From positions 1,312,001-1,376,000 of the forward strand of contig CAWIAD010000002.1 in the NCBI GenBank assembly GCA_963833985.1: a DNA stretch of 64,000 bases. Direction: 5' to 3'. Position 1 is the first letter of the stretch, and each line of letters begins with the position of its first letter. The position numbers and the translations under genes are program-made. The DNA is from an uncultured Planctomycetaceae bacterium (lineage in GTDB: Bacteria > Planctomycetota > Planctomycetia > Isosphaerales > Isosphaeraceae). The notes under the pieces were generated by a model that saw nothing but the letters and a program-made list of their open reading frames with translations, was not told where the DNA came from and searched no databases. Shown piece by piece: positions 33,485 through 40,415 of the stretch.

Positions 33485-33919
33485 CTACTTCCTCTTCGCC
33501 TCGCGGACCTGTGGCGTTTCGGCCAGTGTGAAGCGCACGCGCTCCTCGCCGGTGAGCGTGCTGATATCGTGGTGCATGCTCACAACCTTGATGCCGGTGA
33601 CTTCTTCGACCAGGGCTTCCATGAGAGGTCGCGCAGTTTCGAGAAGATGTGTACGTACTTGTTTGAGCAGATCTCTCCCCTTTTCGGCCGGCAGCGACTT
33701 GACCAGGTGCTGTTCCGCTGCGGTCAAGACGCCTTGGAGGCGGACGATGAGCAAGTCGCCGATCAAGTGAGTGCGGATATCCTTGGGCCCCCGGCCCATG
33801 TTTTCCTGCTCAAAACGACCCATCCCTGCACAAATGGTGGCTTCGATTTCCCCTTGTGTTCTCAAGACCGTTCCATCAACCGTCCGATAGCTGAGGACTC
33901 GGGTTCTCGCAGAGAGCAT
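33485..33919 (-). CDS. DUF2294 / MpsC-like protein
   Basis: TQGEIEA, MGRGPKDI, LQGVLTAAEQHL, SMHHDIST.TGE; start uncertain. Confidence 0.85.
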   Translation of the reverse strand: MLSARTRVLSYRTVDGTVLRTQGEIEATICAGMGRFEQENMGRGPKDIRTHLIGDLLIVRLQGVLTAAEQHLVKSLPAEKGRDLLKQVRTHLLETARPLMEALVEEVTGIKVVSMHHDISTLTGEERVRFTLAETPQVREAKRK

Positions 33920-34073
33920 CCCAGCCCGAATCGTCCAGGCGCCGGCTAACCGGCAAGTATTATTTGTAAAGAAGACAATATCCTTGCAATGGGCGCGAAG
34001 GATGAGATAATAATGGAATCTTGGGAAGCTTGTCCAAGCATGTGGGCAAATCCCGTGACAATCTGAGTTGGGA

Positions 34074-34183
34074 TCGTCGGATAACTACATAAAGGGCAAC
34101 TCGCCTTTGCGGGGGGCTCGTTAGCGAGTAAGCCGGCGCGGCGGATACCTTGGGGTAGTCCGCCGCGCCGGCTTCTTTTATTT
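34074..34183 (+). ncRNA. Riboswitch-like RNA copy 3 with terminator
   Basis: UCGGAUAACUA..GGGCAACUCGC..GCGGGGGGCUC..GAGUAAGCCGGCGCGGCGG...CCGCCGCGCCGGCUUCUUUU. Confidence 0.72.
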
Positions 34184-34252
34184 GCTGGGTGCCGTGCACA
34201 TGGGCCAGGGTTGAATTCGCTGTCCAGAACCCTAGCGCTCACGGAGAAACAG

Positions 34253-34361
34253 ATGAAATCAGTCTCGATCAAGTCGTCTGTCCCCTCAGAAAACGAGCAG
34301 GTACTGGAATCCGCGCGTGGACTGCATGTGCAGATCCATGTCTCTGGTCAGAATGGTTCTA
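34253..34361 (+). pseudogene. 5' stub of the gene downstream of RNA copy 3, cut by the IS630 end
   Basis: GGAG RBS and ATG at 34253 (MKSVSIKSSVP...); the frame runs into the IS630 terminus at TA 34360-61. Confidence 0.4.
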
Positions 34362-34446
34362 AGCGGCTCGCCGCGGTTTCTTTTCACTTTTTGATTTGAG
34401 ACCGCGCCCGTACCCCTGGAAGCCTGTGTCAACTGCCGCGCGGAGG
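34359..34446 (-). pseudogene. IS630-family transposase, C-terminal piece separated by the four-gene transposon
   Basis: Removing 34447-38671 plus one GGAGG restores ...TTRASL-RAAVDTGFQGYGRGLKSKSEKKPRRAA* in frame. Confidence 0.85.
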
Positions 34447-34599
34447 TGTGCGTGAGCAGGCTAAGCGACGCGAAATCAGCGATTCCTGAGCAACATCGCT
34501 GAGGGTACCAACAAAATTCCCCTCGAAGAGCCTGGTCACTTGATCAAGCTTCCCGAGGGGTGTACTCCGTGGTTTACCACAACAGCGGAGTACTCGACC

Positions 34600-35184
34600 A
34601 TGTATCATGATTTACCCCGGACCGCCAGGCTCTGGTCGTTTCTTTGGGCTGTCGACCAGCATCTCGCAGAGGAAACCCGCAAGCAAGCATGTTCATGTGG
34701 CGGCCGCCTGCACGCCGCCAACTATCTCCGCAAGCCACGCGGCACTGCCGTCCAGCTACCCGAGCAAGAATGCCTCAGACTGAGCTTCTGCTGCGATCGC
34801 GAGGGCTGCAGGAAGAGAGTCACACCGCCGTCGGTGCGCTTCCTGGGCCGCAAGGTCTACCTGGGCGCGATCGTGATCCTCATCAGCGCCATGCGGCAGG
34901 GACCCTCGCCACGCCGCGTCCGCGAGCTTTCCACACGCTTCGGCGCCGACCGCCGGACCATCGCCCGCTGGCAGGTCTTCTGGCGCGAACGCTTTCCTCA
35001 GACACCATTCTGGAAGGTTGCAGGCGCCCGGTTGGTGCCGGTCCTGGAGATCCTCTCCCTTCCCTACTCACTTGTCGACGCCTTCCTCTCCCGCCATCGC
35101 ATCTGCAAAGGGTGGACGCTCCTGCTGCGGTTTCTCGCACCGATCACGATCCCCGGCGGCCTGCGAATCGAGGTCTCGCGATGA
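34600..35184 (+). CDS. Transposon orf1: Cys-rich (Zn-binding-like) plus HTH-like protein
   Basis: CSCGGRLH...CCDREGCRKR, then ELSTRFGADRRTIARW; ATG at 34600 after GGAG. Confidence 0.75.
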   Translation: MYHDLPRTARLWSFLWAVDQHLAEETRKQACSCGGRLHAANYLRKPRGTAVQLPEQECLRLSFCCDREGCRKRVTPPSVRFLGRKVYLGAIVILISAMRQGPSPRRVRELSTRFGADRRTIARWQVFWRERFPQTPFWKVAGARLVPVLEILSLPYSLVDAFLSRHRICKGWTLLLRFLAPITIPGGLRIEVSR

Positions 35185-35280
35185 TCGCTTTCCACCCGCA
35201 GAAGATGCTCGTCGCCGATTTTGATCCGCCGATTTATAGAGGTTGTCACGGTCCCTTCACCCGACTTGTGAGGAGATGTG

Positions 35281-36754
35281 ATGACTCAAAGACACCCCTG
35301 TTCAACCGCTGCCTTGTGGGCACGGTTTCGGTTCTCCGTGGTGGGCTCGCTCCTGAGCTCTCCCCCTGCGCGGATCGCTTCAGACAGCGATCTGCTCCCT
35401 TGCCGAAAAGACCTGGTCGCATCCTGTGACGGGGCGCGATGTCCGCGTCGCGGCCGCCACCATCGCGCGCTGGTACTACACGGCGCTCCACCAGCCTGAC
35501 GACCCGGTCGCCGCCTTGCGTCGTGCCGTGCGGAAAGACTGCGGAAAGATCTCGCTGGCGGCGACCCTCGCCGAGCGACTCCATCTCCAGTATCGCGATC
35601 ACACGGACTGGAGCTATCAACTGCACTACGACAACCTCGCCGCGCTCTTGAAGGCCGATCCCTCACTGGGGCGGCTCCCCTCCTATTCCACGATCAAGCG
35701 TTTCATGCAGGCTCACGGCCTGGTGCGCAGACCGAGGCTCCGGCCCGGCGGACGCCCTGGCGAAGTCCGCGCCCAAGAGAGGCGTCAGACACGGGAAATC
35801 CGCAGCTACGAAGCCACCCATGTCGGAGCGCTCTGGCATCTCGATTTCCACCACGGATCGCTCAAGGTGCTCACTCCCGGCGGCCAGTGGCTGCGGCCAA
35901 TCGCGCTGGGCATCCTCGATGACCACTCACGACTGTGCTGCCACGTTCAGTGGTATCTCTCGGAGACCGCCGAGGACCTGGTGCACGGACTCTCCCAGGC
36001 GATCCAGAAACGGGGCCTGCCGCGCGCGCTGTTGACCGATAACGGCTCCGCGATGGTGGCCGAGGAAGTCACCGAAGGGCTCTTGCGTCTGGGCATCGTC
36101 GCAGAGCGAACGCTCCCTTATAGCCCGTATCAAAACGGCAAGCAGGAGGCGTTCTGGGGCACGCTCAAGGGGCGGCTCATGAAGATGCTCGATGGTGTCA
36201 GGGAATTGACCCTGGAATTGCTCAATGAGGCAACCCAGGCCTGGATGGAAATTGAGTACAACCGCGCCGTGCACCGCGAGACCGGCAGCTCGCCGGTCGA
36301 CCGCTTCGCCAAGGCCCCCGATGTGCTTCGCTCGAGCCCTTCGAGTGTAGCGCTGCGTGCGGCATTCCGCCTGGAGACCAAGAGGAGCCAGCGTCAAAGC
36401 GACGGCACCATCTCACTGGAGGGGAGGCGCTTCGAGATTCCGGCAAGGTACCGTCACTTCCGCGCAGTGACCGTCCGTTACGCCCGCTGGGACCTCGGCC
36501 GGATCGATCTGGTCGACGAGCAAAGTGGAACCGTCCTGGCTCCCATTTATCCCCTCGACAAAGCCGCCAACGCCGACGGCCGCCGGGCCGTAACCGGGTC
36601 CGGTGGCACCGAGGTGCCGTCCCCAGAGCAGCGGCGCGACGCCGGCGAACTGCCACCCCTCCTGAAAAGGATCCTCCAGGAGTACTCGGCCACGGGCATG
36701 CCGCCGGCCTATTTGCCCAGGACATCCCCGAAAGACAACGGAGAACCCTCATGA
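35281..36754 (+). CDS. DDE integrase/transposase (rve-type, Mu/TnsB-like C-terminus); frameshift near 35370
   Basis: WHLDFH, LTDNGS and NGKQE form the DDE triad; DGTISLEGRRFEIP C-terminal region. Confidence 0.9.
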
Positions 36755-37595
36755 ATAGCAAGAAACTGCTGGCACTCTATGGGCTGAAATGGAACCCGTT
36801 TTCACCCGAGCTTCCTCCCGAAGCACTGCTGGCGCCCCCCAGGATCGAGCAATTTGCCTGGCGCGTGGAACAGCTGGTCCAGGAAGGAGGCTTCGCGCTG
36901 ATCACGGGTGAGTCGGGCACCGGCAAATCGGTGGCGCTGCGGATTGTGGCCGGGCGGCTGGCGGCGCTGCGGGATGTCACCGTCGGTGTGATCGAGCGAC
37001 CCCAGTCGAAGAGCCCCGACTTCTATCGGGAGCTGGGGGACATCTTCGCGGTGAAGCTGGCACCGCACAATCGCTGGTGCGGGTTCAAGGCGCTCCGCGA
37101 GCGGTGGAAAGCCCACGTGGCCTCCTCGCGGATCCGCCCGGTGCTGCTGATCGACGAAGCCCAGGAGATGAGCCCTGAGGTCCTCTGCGAGCTGCGTATT
37201 CTCTCCAGCGCCGACTTCGATGCCACGTCGCTTTTGACCGTGATCCTCTCGGGAGATGAACGACTGCTGGAACTGTTGCGGCACGAAGATCTGGTGCCCC
37301 TGGGCACCCGGATTCGCACGCGACTGGTCACCGAGCCCGCCACCCGCGAAGAGCTCCTGGAGTTGCTTCAGCACGCGCTGGCCAAGGCCGGCAATGCCGC
37401 GCTCATGACGCCCCAGCTCGCAGAGACACTGGTCGACCACAGCGCGGGGAACTACCGTTTGCTCATGATTATGGGAGGTGAGCTCTTGGCCCATGGCATG
37501 GCGCACGAAATCGGGCAGCTTGACGAGAAGTGCTACCTCGAGGTCTATCAGCCGCGAGGCCCGCGCCCGCGCTGAAGAAGAAAGCGAAGGTGTGA
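36751..37595 (+). CDS. ExeA-like AAA+ ATPase (transposition helper); likely 1-nt slip near the C-terminus
   Basis: YGLKWNPF, Walker A GESGTGKS, Walker B LLIDEAQ; ORF stops at 37575, while adding one C gives ...ALKKKAKV* at 37595. Confidence 0.88.
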
Positions 37596-37597
37596 CG

Positions 37598-38551
37598 ATG
37601 GCGACCAGTGGCGAGCAAGTGCTTCCGGTGGTGCGTGTGGCCGAGCTTCCCAGCGATGAGCTCGCGGAGCGATGGCTGGTGGAGCAGCTCTGGTGTGCCC
37701 ACGCGGTGGGCGTCATCGGCGGCGCTCCGAAGTGCGCCAAGACGTGGCTGGGGCTGGACATGGCCCTCTCCGTAGCCACGGGCACACCATGCCTGGGCAA
37801 GTATGCCGTACCGGAGCCGGGACCGGTTCTGGTTTACCTGGCTGAGGATGCGCTGCGGGCTGTGCGCGAACGTATCGAGGGAATGGCCCGGCATCGCGGT
37901 CTGGATCTCGACGAGGTGTCGATCCACGTGATCACGGTCCCGGTGCTCCGGCTCGATCACGATCGAGACCGCACGCGGCTGTGGGAGACAGTGCGGGGGC
38001 TTCGGCCTCGGCTGCTGGTGCTGGATCCCCTGGTGCGACTTCACGGCATCGACGAGAATCATGCTGGCGACGTCGCCGAATTACTCGGGTATCTGCGGTC
38101 GTTGCAGCGTCAGCTTGGCCTGGCGGTTCTGCTGGTGCATCACACGCGGAAGAACGCCGCGGACGGTGTTGCCGCCGGTCAGGGCCTGCGTGGGTCGGGT
38201 GACATACATGCCTTCGGCGACTCGAACCTGTATCTCCAGCGCACGAAGGAGCACCTGATCCTCTCCAGCGAGCACCGGTCGGCGCCGGCAGTCAGCGCCT
38301 GTTTATCTGGAGCTGGTCGCCACCGACGCGGGGACAGCTCACCTGGAGGTCATCGCAGCGCCTGATGATCGGAACGGGCGCGACCTCGAAGGGCAAGTGC
38401 TGAATCTTCTGGCTCAAGGCCGAGTGCTTACGCGAGCGAGCCTGCGTGATTCGCTGGCGGTGAAGAACGAGCGTTTAGGGACGGTACTGGAGTCACTGGA
38501 GCGCACGGCAAGATCGGCCGCACAACTGGAGGCTGGCGACGTCTCCGCTGA
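37598..38551 (+). CDS. RecA/RepA-like (AAA_25, SF4-helicase-like) ATPase with C-terminal wHTH-like region; two frameshifts
   Basis: GAPKCAKT, YLAED, LLVLDPL, VHHTRK, LRGSGD; continues PVYLEL...LRDSLAVKNERL...GGWRRLR*. Confidence 0.75.
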
Positions 38552-38566
38552 TCATCCGGAGCGGAC

Positions 38567-38601
38567 CGTTCCGTTCCCCTTCCGGAGAGGGGAACGGAAC
38601 G
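38567..38601. repeat. Perfect 14-bp inverted repeat with 7-nt spacer inside the transposon right arm
   Basis: CGTTCCGTTCCCCT-tccggag-AGGGGAACGGAACG. Confidence 0.9.
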
Positions 38602-38671
38602 ATCCTCCTGCAGTGAAATACACCATCGATCATCTTGCCCAGATGGCCATCGATTATCGCGGCCACTCTCA

Positions 38672-39155
38672 GGAGGCTGGCCCGTGTGGTGTGACTTCGC
38701 TGCGGCATCTCCTGGTACTCCACCTGCCGGAACACAGACTCGATCTCATTAAGGTCCGGCGCATACGGCGGAAGGAAATACAGGTAAACCCCTCTTGCAG
38801 CCAGCCCTCGTCGAGCTCGCCGGACGACGTGGCTGGTGTGCAGACCCGCATTATCAAGCACCACGACACGAGGGACGCTGGCTCGGGGTAATGCCCCGAG
38901 GAACTTCAAGAAATCATAGGAGTCCCAGGTGCGATCCGCGGTGAAGACTTCGAGCCGCGGTGAGTGCCCGTAAGGCCGATATGCCGCCATGGCGTTGCCC
39001 CGGCGGCGCTGCGGACTCTCGTAGCCGATCCGCTTACATTGTCCCCGCAGGGACCAGCTATAGGCCGTCAGCAAGGTGGGTGCAAAGCCGCATTCGTCAA
39101 GGTAGTAGAGCTTCAGGCAGCCAGCTGATGCTTTTTTTTCAAGTTGTCCAGCACC
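38672..39155 (-). pseudogene. IS630-family transposase, catalytic (orfB) part with A8G slippery site; N-terminus lost at the ISAs1 junction
   Basis: YYLDECGF, VVLDNAGLH, LPPYAPDLNEIE; T8 at 39132-39139 on the plus strand reads TTG AAA AAA AAG on the minus strand. Confidence 0.85.
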
Positions 39156-40415
39156 CAGGGCGATTGCGCCATAATGGGTAATTTGGCATGATTGGGCGGA
39201 CGCGATTTCGCCGCTTGTTGCGAATCAGCAAGGGTCGAGGAGATCGCGCGAGCCCGGAATTCATGACATGTCGAAATCCAAGTCTGTTCGGATCGCGGAC
39301 CATTTCGCGGAACTGACCGATCCGCGGCGTCGTGCGGTGACCTACCCGTTGATCAATGTGGTAGTCATTGCCGTGTGTGCTGTGATCTGTGGCGCGGATG
39401 ATTTCGTCGCCATCGCCAAGTTCGGCAAGACGAAGCATGAGTGGCTGGCGCGGTTTCTCGATCTGAAGACCGGCATACCGTCGCACGATCGTTTCAATGC
39501 GATCTTCGCCGCCCTCAAACCGGCGGAGTTCGAGAAGTGTTTGCTGAGCTGGATCACGGCTCTGCATGAAGTCACCGGCGGGCAGGTGATCGCCATCGAC
39601 GGCAAGACGCTTCGCCGCAGCTTCGATACGGCCAGCAGCAAGACGGCCATTCACATGGTGAGTGCCTGGGCGACCGCCAATCATATTAGCTTGGGGCAGG
39701 TCGTCGTCGACGCCAAGAGCAACGAGATCACGGCCATCCCGAAACTGCTGGAAATGCTCGAATTGGCCGGCGCGATGGTCACCATCGACGCGATGGGTTG
39801 TCAAACCGAGATCGCGCGGCGAATCGTCGACGCAGGCGCGGATTACTGCCTGGCCGTGAAGGATAACCAACCCACTTTGCATCAGGGGATCATCGACTAC
39901 TTCGCGAGGCACGTGGAGGACGACTTCGCGGGCGTCCGGATGCGTCACCATACGACTGATGAAAAAGGGCACGGGCGAGTGGAGACTCGTCACTACATGA
40001 TCTGCCCTGTTCCCGACGATTTGCCAGACCGTTTGCGTTGGCCCGGCCTGAAGGCGATTGGAGTTGCCATCAACATAACACAGCGCGACGGCGAGACGGT
40101 CGGCGAAAACCGCTATTACATCCTGAGCAAATTCGTCGCGGCCAGCCGTTTCGCCGATGCCGTACGGTCGCACTGGGGTATCGAAAACCAACTGCACTGG
40201 CAACTCGATGTCACCTTTCAGGAAGACCAATGCCGCATCCGCCAAGGTCACGCGGATGCGAACTTCAGCATCCTCCGCAGGGCCGCACTGAGCCTGTTGA
40301 AGAACGAGACCACACTGAAAGTCGGCATCAAGAACAAACGCCTCACCGCCGGCTGGGACGAAGCCTATCTCGAAAAAGTGCTGATCGGCTCATGACTTAA
40401 GGTGCAATCGCCCTG
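39156..40415 (+). mobile_element. ISAs1-family insertion sequence
   Basis: IRs CAGGGCGATTGCGCCATAA and rc CAGGGCGATTGCACCTTAA (17/19); flanks not duplicated. Confidence 0.92.
39268..40395 (+). CDS. ISAs1-family transposase
   Basis: DPRR, IAIDGKTLRRS, KSNEITAIP, TIDAMGCQ, HGRVETR, HWGIENQLHWQLDV. Confidence 0.95.
   Translation: MSKSKSVRIADHFAELTDPRRRAVTYPLINVVVIAVCAVICGADDFVAIAKFGKTKHEWLARFLDLKTGIPSHDRFNAIFAALKPAEFEKCLLSWITALHEVTGGQVIAIDGKTLRRSFDTASSKTAIHMVSAWATANHISLGQVVVDAKSNEITAIPKLLEMLELAGAMVTIDAMGCQTEIARRIVDAGADYCLAVKDNQPTLHQGIIDYFARHVEDDFAGVRMRHHTTDEKGHGRVETRHYMICPVPDDLPDRLRWPGLKAIGVAINITQRDGETVGENRYYILSKFVAASRFADAVRSHWGIENQLHWQLDVTFQEDQCRIRQGHADANFSILRRAALSLLKNETTLKVGIKNKRLTAGWDEAYLEKVLIGS

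Follow-up and report, generated by a model that had tools for sequence, protein, structure and literature searches.

A transposon inserted in an IS630 gene

The 64,000-nucleotide stretch of an uncultured Planctomycetaceae bacterium analysed here (contig CAWIAD010000002.1; hereafter the window, whose positions serve as coordinates) carries a 4,225-bp transposon at 34447..38671 on the + strand, a helicase-bearing variant of the Tn6049 family without a zinc-finger gene. The transposon begins with TG and ends with CA, and it is flanked by a duplicated GGAGG (34442..34446 on the left and 38672..38676 on the right, both +). Its terminal inverted repeats are identical at 15 of 24 positions, a match with a chance of 9e-5 against random window positions. 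The left repeat lies at 34447..34470 (+), and the right end (38624..38671, −) holds the other repeat together with a second 24-bp repeat, as candidate transposase sites. The insertion interrupts an IS630 (DDE_3) transposase gene, of which the upstream part lies at 38672..39074 (−) and the last codons and stop at 34359..34446 (−). Scripted excision of the transposon restored this reading frame, with TTRASL up to the junction and RAAVDTG after it, continuing to a stop codon. The unit, its end sequences, the duplication and the restored frame had been given in a preliminary description made from the sequence letters, and all were reproduced.

The genome that holds the window (10.2 Mb, two contigs) contains six full copies of the transposon, and its ends are fixed independently because the five copies outside the window share the same start and end bases. 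Outside one insertion the six copies differ at 15 positions, and partial left ends are present too. Target duplications measure 5, 5, 6 and 7 bp and are absent in two copies, so that the 5-bp duplication first described holds for the window copy and does not extend to all others. The 7-bp duplication was confirmed by an empty site elsewhere in the genome, and a junction match of 5–8 bp is expected by chance in 0.24% of random pairs. The transposon is real, has recently moved and is multi-copy.

Four co-oriented genes (Cys-rich/helix-turn-helix (HTH), rve DDE, AAA_22 and AAA_25) lie on the + strand, as had been described. Gene A (34600..35184, 194 amino acids) has four invariant cysteines (C31, C33, C65 and C70; a predicted zinc site) and an HTH at residues 84–135. 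It had no Pfam match; DUF6431 is found in 32–44% of the members of its Atlas neighbours. Its predicted fold (predicted local distance difference test score of 64) gave generic HTH matches only, and A is a predicted DNA-binding accessory or regulator. Gene T (35281..36754) encodes a DDE transposase (rve) with invariant D, D and E residues in WHLD, TDNG and KQE motifs. The closest solved protein to T is TnsB of ShCAST (E 8.8e-7); its best-scoring transposase models are IS481 and IS3, and it falls below the cut-offs for IS481, IS3 and IS21. At position 36167, in the transposase core, the window copy is alone in having a lysine; glutamate stands there in the five remaining copies and in almost every relative. 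Gene C (36751..37575; 274 amino acids in the window copy and 281 in two others) encodes an AAA_22/ExeA-like AAA+ ATPase of the MuB/TnsC kind, with MuB and TnsC as its closest solved proteins (E 5.9e-4 and 6.5e-3). These matches bear out the earlier assignment to a Mu/Tn7-type pairing of DDE transposase and AAA+ ATPase.

Gene H (37598..38551; 317 amino acids in the other five copies) encodes an ATPase/helicase (AAA_25) with a C-terminal winged helix. As had been proposed, it is RepA-like: RSF1010 RepA is its best match in the PDB by sequence (E 6.5e-13) and also the best fold match of its predicted structure, with RadA/Sms and other RecA-fold motors ranking high as well. The RepA/SF4 motifs are all invariant in 35 sequences (K48, E83, D143, H181, LRGS and R227), the Walker A, catalytic Glu, Walker B, His sensor and Arg finger positions included. 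H has all the catalytic motifs of RSF1010 RepA, although the two are only 18% identical. RSF1010 RepA is not known to carry a winged helix, and its partners RepB and RepC are separate proteins. The winged helix of H (residues 261–313) gave weak matches to Z-DNA-binding Z-alpha domains (E 0.01–0.07). Three of 17 longer homologues are C–H fusion proteins, which we read as frameshift run-ons and left unused.

The preliminary description had the gene set right, but as assembled the unit is not intact, and a palindrome behind H and a fifth gene in relatives had been missed. Near 35367 a GC is missing from all six copies, and the loss splits a transposase frame that in relatives runs unbroken for about 490–491 amino acids. 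Two insertions or deletions (indels) in H, at 38293 and 38505, occur in the window copy only, and reading stops at 38365. Short-read contigs (depth under 5) have the intact form at all three broken places: one that is otherwise identical to the window carries the GC, and another is free of both H indels. The GC is lost at 16 of the 19 scored sites in MFD-labelled GTDB records and at 0 of 8 in other records (L037 was dropped as an in-frame variant and L033 was left unscored); the contig sizes, mostly long, suggest that MFD-labelled records are long-read assemblies. Intact and short transposase forms occur together within one genome. The frameshifts of the window copy are probably assembly errors, and real slippage at the site near 35367 is less likely. 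Programmed frameshifting or phase variation in the transposase was considered and judged less likely than consensus error, given the pattern across record types, the coexisting forms and the intact short-read contig. We used the intact frames of another copy, L001, for the gene analyses.

Tn6049 and the slot behind gene C

A plasmid search led to Tn6049 of Cupriavidus metallidurans, whose first three genes correspond in order to A, T and C (36%, 56% and 57% identity, respectively). The ends are also alike: the first 12 bases of the left repeat are identical to the right end of Tn6049 (18 of 24 overall), and Tn6049 has internal 24-bp repeats as well. Both elements are multi-copy, with 12 copies of Tn6049 in strain CH34. 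The Tn6049 duplication is 5 bp on pMOL28, compared with 5 bp in the window copy and 5–7 bp among the copies in its genome. A duplication of 4 bp is reported on pHS87a, a Pseudomonas aeruginosa plasmid that also carries Tn6049, in a paper that describes the element as promiscuous (PMC4739549), and a size of 3.5 kb, 12 copies and a gspA-like ATPase are given in PMC2864759. At 3,517 bp, however, Tn6049 has a 71-residue acidic peptide as its fourth gene, and neither helicase nor palindrome. The window element, with an AAA_25 helicase as its fourth gene, is a relative within the Tn6049 family and not Tn6049 itself; this family has no formal definition, and the features compared are those of Tn6049. 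The family is already named but uncharacterised. Its module 'could not be categorized' according to PMC6210171, and PMC13192273 adds no information on mechanism. The preliminary description knew of no characterised family with this four-gene layout; the absence of a catalogued family is not supported, as the first three genes and the ends are common to Tn6049.

RefSeq labels the Tn6049 transposase as IS481, but the window element is not a member of IS21, IS481 or canonical Tn7. IS481 elements have a single transposase gene, whereas this element has four genes, and T scores 116 bits against a cut-off of 224 for NF033577. For IS21, T scores 54.9 bits against a cut-off of 160 for NF033546, and C matches AAA_22 and no IstB model. 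IS21 and Tn552 have a transposase–ATPase pair, TG...CA ends and a variable short duplication, as does the window element; staphylococcal plasmids, screened without a direct comparison to Tn552, gave no T match at E 1e-15. TnsB-like, MuB and TnsC homologues, CA ends and repeated end sites are shared with phage Mu and ShCAST (a TnsA-less Tn7-like element), and the Tn7/Tn5053 group likewise combines a TnsB-like transposase with a TnsC-like ATPase. In contrast to Mu and Tn7-like elements, the window element has no phage genes or Cas and no recognisable TniQ/TnsD, and its duplication is 5–7 bp rather than a fixed 5 bp. No transposon gene matched TniQ in Pfam or NCBIfam; as regards likeness to TniQ/TnsD, gene A has Cys and HTH parts, and its model is of low confidence with generic HTH matches. 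All 8,000 transposase candidates that were scored passed, gene A was represented by 2,682 clusters, and viral collections held no transposase relative.

To compare what lies behind gene C, we ranked 78 GTDB loci by likeness to the window transposase. H directly follows C in 59 of them, a contig end cuts 8, and 11 have no H. We added 80 metagenome loci, found with a more distant profile, and removed 22 duplicate copies and too-short loci, which left 109 loci including L001, L100 and L101. H occupies the slot in 60 of the 109, either alone (31), with a CHC2 zinc finger (27) or with DnaA_N (2, as a fusion). In the other 49 the slot is replaced or empty: it holds a Tn6049-type peptide (29), a zinc finger alone (3), other small proteins (8), an ambiguous occupant (2) or nothing (7). 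These shares reflect two queries rather than nature, and some loci scored as H alone end before a zinc finger could show. The CHC2 zinc finger is a fifth gene in many close relatives. In a FastTree tree of the transposases, H turns up on several deep branches, among which the other occupants form clades; the tree is midpoint-rooted, so the order of gain and loss of H is not set by it. Wherever both ends could be placed, H lies inside them, and 12 of 48 such elements keep a duplication of at least 5 bp.

All four genes are present in 47 loci, and across these the distances of H correlate with those of T, C and A at rho values of 0.84, 0.84 and 0.79, respectively, compared with 0.82–0.88 among the core genes. 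For H the median dN/dS is 0.21, compared with 0.24 (zinc finger) and 0.29–0.34 (core genes). H co-diverges with the transposase and is under purifying selection. The AAA_25 gene lies inside the ends across several phyla, and it is absent from Tn6049 and from a three-gene version that has four copies in one genome. Each of the two findings that the preliminary description had named as speaking against it, homologues that usually lack AAA_25 or have it outside the ends and a match to a catalogued family, thus turned up in part. With Tn6049 reaching 12 copies in CH34 without a helicase, the idea that the helicase is a core component of the whole family is not supported; the helicase is instead a long-lived, swappable module.

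The Tn6049-type peptide, of about 70 residues, terminates in acidic residues and a final Phe (acidic-x-F) in 24 of 29 cases, with a PF end in 21. A final Phe is found in 0 of 109 T or C proteins and in 11 of 106 A proteins. The C terminus of SSB, the host protein that binds single-stranded DNA, is EEDIPF, and the SSB tail is described as a docking motif for primase and other partners (PMC5872125). On the strength of these sequences, the peptide appears to mimic the SSB tail. Slot occupants of about 115, 135 and 168 residues (L151, L168, L179, L183 and L186; L089:3177-3581; L088:3376-3879) gave weak hints to replication proteins (RepB_primase_C, E 0.03; phrog_428, E 0.05). At least five copies of L258, a distant DDE/ExeA element whose AAA_25 gene is more distant, occur in one genome (G635).

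The palindrome and a possible role in replication

A conserved palindrome of two GTTCC, a short spacer and two GGAAC lies at 38563..38605, within the 120 bp between H and the right end of the window copy and about 65 bp from that end; it is a candidate binding site or origin for H. Of 51 H loci in which sufficient sequence was available, 43 have a strict form of the pattern directly after H, and 0 of 47 loci without H contain it. In the whole genome that holds the window, the strict pattern has 12 matches, six of which are the transposon copies. Read as a hairpin, the palindrome has 91% of its cells paired and a good fold (z −5.4), but two-sided change is missing from 11 of its 16 pairs; a hairpin is therefore indistinguishable from symmetric protein sites. 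A search of 17 loci against Rfam gave no match for the palindrome or other tails except for an unrelated group II intron, and viral collections held no exact palindrome. In distant members the helicase gene is followed by other conserved non-coding tails that look structured, of which there are two, one in L074, L083, L085, L086, L181, L182, L225, L228 and L252, and the other in L164, L175, L177, L258 and L262. Those scanned had no Rfam match; they are candidate RNA motifs or alternative origins.

We also searched from the helicase side, independently of the transposase, in 401 + 401 genomes, scoring the best locus per genome for 51 loci with the genome of the window excluded (for seven genomes with weak matches there was no locus). 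Strong H matches numbered 19, of which 18 lie directly behind an ExeA-type ATPase. Eight of these 18 are distant, with 25–32% identity where BLAST aligned and with ends unmapped. By contrast, 30 of 32 weaker matches have no ExeA-type ATPase ahead, and all six that were scanned are primase–helicase fusions. In one such relative, L241 (CHC2, Toprim and AAA_25), the same palindrome layout follows the gene. Viral collections held six primase–helicase relatives, all lacking the winged helix and the palindrome, and of P0279 they held only the part that is not helicase. A look for RNA holders listed none.

These arrangements bear on whether the helicase might be passenger cargo from a plasmid or satellite replicon with no part in transposition. 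In 49 of 109 loci the helicase slot has another occupant or none, Tn6049 is promiscuous without a helicase, and a degenerate 9.7-kb derivative in the genome of the window shows that the ends can enclose unrelated genes, all as cargo would predict. Cargo sits poorly, however, with the purifying selection on H, its co-divergence with the core genes, its fixed and tightly spaced position behind C, and the 18 of 19 strong matches directly behind an ExeA-type ATPase, eight of them from distant lineages. We consider this reading very unlikely.

The arrangement of H and the palindrome resembles known replicons. In staphylococcal pathogenicity island (SaPI) origins, a winged-helix helicase gene is directly followed by at least two opposed iterons on each side of an AT core (PMC9371898), and in pRN1 a stem-loop after the helicase gene is needed (PMC4234260). 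As in the window element, SaPI Rep/ori and pRN1-type systems place opposed repeats or a stem-loop after a helicase with a C-terminal winged helix, but they serve autonomous replication, whereas the window element has two repeats a side with a short spacer inside a DDE transposon. We infer that H, the zinc finger and the palindrome are parts of a dismantled replicon in which the helicase and its site were kept and the primase core was lost. The slot occupants in relatives (the CHC2 finger, the DnaA_N fusion and the SSB-like peptide) likewise point at a role in replication, as judged from their sequences.

We propose that the slot of helicase and origin-like palindrome starts replication through the element after strand transfer, a proposal to which we give about an even chance. 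With help from the MuB/TnsC-like C, T would introduce nicks at the 3′ CA ends, which it would then join to the target with a stagger of 5–7 bp. No TnsA-like nuclease or resolvase is encoded inside the ends; the product should therefore be a branched (Shapiro) intermediate that needs replication, as in a model of nick-and-join without a second-strand nuclease (PMC3562280). The winged helix would let H bind to the inverted repeats close to the right end, where H would be loaded as a ring, unwind the DNA and pass it on to host primase and polymerase. In relatives, the zinc finger, DnaA domain or SSB-like tail may be alternative handles on the same host machinery. The role in replicative resolution guessed at in the preliminary description is the best-supported function. 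Duplications swapped between copies, which were seen in G304 and L035, would fit replicative rearrangement.

Another function for the slot would be target selection, as by TnsE of Tn7: H would bind single-stranded DNA or forks and nucleate C, directing insertion into replicating DNA. The slot lies directly behind the AAA+ gene, where Tn7 elements keep their target selectors, and an SSB-like tail or a DnaA domain would also suit fork finding. Two copies in the genome of the window lie inside other insertion-sequence genes. The predicted ancestor of TnsE is PriB, a primosome protein (PMC10293859), and Tn4430 is reported to insert at forks (bioRxiv 10.64898/2026.05.30.728999). A target selector needs no private palindrome, yet the palindrome accompanies H in 43 of 51 loci and never occurs without it, and a like site also follows a stand-alone primase–helicase gene. 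The orientation of copies relative to replication direction could not be used here, as GC skew in this genome is too flat to place the replichores. We regard target selection as unlikely.

Alternatively, the element may excise or copy out as a circle that the helicase and palindrome replicate, making it a small self-amplifying transposon. IS3 transposes through circles, and T scores best with IS481 and IS3 models; the complete layout of helicase, winged helix and iterons, and the relatives with a zinc finger or Toprim, are also as expected. However, abutted right and left ends were absent from the loci examined, and no such joints appeared in four shallow contig sets (both are weak tests). The window copy has no primase, and plasmid records gave no H match at E 1e-10. 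We find a circle quite unlikely. A further possibility is that H is a remodelling motor that strips the transpososome or migrates the branch, a job done by ClpX for Mu, with the palindrome as its loading site. The high ranks of RadA/Sms and other RecA-fold motors in the fold search and the distance of about 65 bp from palindrome to right end agree with this, but the primase zinc finger, the DnaA domain and the primase-fused relatives would be left unexplained, and we judge it highly improbable.

Several observations weigh against replication started by the slot. An empty slot occurs in 7 of 109 loci, including an element with four copies in G303; the slot is therefore dispensable or supplied in trans. 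Of 11 well-supported H splits, 8 agree with the T tree, so some exchange occurred. The slot types X115, X135, X168 and other had no significant family match, 8 of 51 H loci miss the strict palindrome (L164, L175 and L177 carry a different structured sequence), and the palindrome spacer, at about 8–20 bp, is short for melting. SaPI helicases belong to a different superfamily (AAA+, SF3/MCM-like, whereas H has a RepA/RecA fold) and come with a cognate primase; no primase catalytic domain was found inside the window element. Recombination between copies and errors of assembly are further sources of swapped duplications.

A wider reading, to which we give somewhat less than an even chance as a whole, extends replication from the slot to the entire group. 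Tn6049-like elements would form a large class of DDE transposons, so far uncharted, in which the replication slot is modular. In one branch a plasmid or satellite replicon would have been tamed into a private helicase and origin, with which the element loads a fork of its own on the transposition intermediate, or on a circle after excision, and needs no host restart proteins. A primase zinc finger, a DnaA domain or an SSB-tail mimic would serve the same end in other branches, and the same helicase–origin cassette would also have been captured behind other, distant DDE/ATPase pairs.

Copy variants, surroundings and significance

In two copies in the same genome (C2:1407341-1412921 and C1:284682-290263), the transposase gene is interrupted at an identical TTA by one and the same insertion of 1,356 bp, which we take to be a two-frame transposase of ISAzo13 appearance. 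The two copies lie at different sites with 7- and 6-bp duplications, and the interrupted form therefore moved or was copied in trans. The copies in C2:5875171-5882060 and C2:1404677-1412921 have 2,664 bp of left flank in common, including another transposase gene, through a composite move, a duplication or a rearrangement. The degenerate derivative (L002, C2:4486188-4495868; 9,681 bp) has both ends, fragments of A and H, and the palindrome but no duplication. Between its ends lie a gene like those of sigma factors, a long gene for a Ser/Thr kinase and other insertion-sequence genes (labels assigned by eye). In the window, an ISAs1-type transposase (DDE_Tnp_1 and DDE_Tnp_1_assoc; 39268-40395) lies just upstream in the same IS630, which thus looks interrupted twice. 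On the other side are an MpsC-family gene and the intergenic stretch before it (33485-33919 and 33960-34200), with an inverted repeat at 34126-34175 in that stretch that has partial matches elsewhere.

The family is thus already known by the name Tn6049, and its helicase module lacks a description in the literature searched, a search that ISfinder, TnCentral, the 2009 naming paper and supplements, any of which may contain one, fell outside. The family is abundant across many phyla and mislabelled as IS481 in annotations, and Tn6049 itself is present on a clinical Pseudomonas plasmid. How the joined DNA of a replicative transposon is handed over to the replication machinery is understood chiefly from Mu, and for Tn3-type elements the debate continues. 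To our knowledge, Mu encodes no helicase. It relies on host restart proteins (PMC3334882). The element described here probably supplies some of the machinery that copies its DNA. Having a helicase and a candidate origin of its own in 4 kb, and natural swaps of the slot among its relatives, it makes the handover question testable by simple deletions and swaps.

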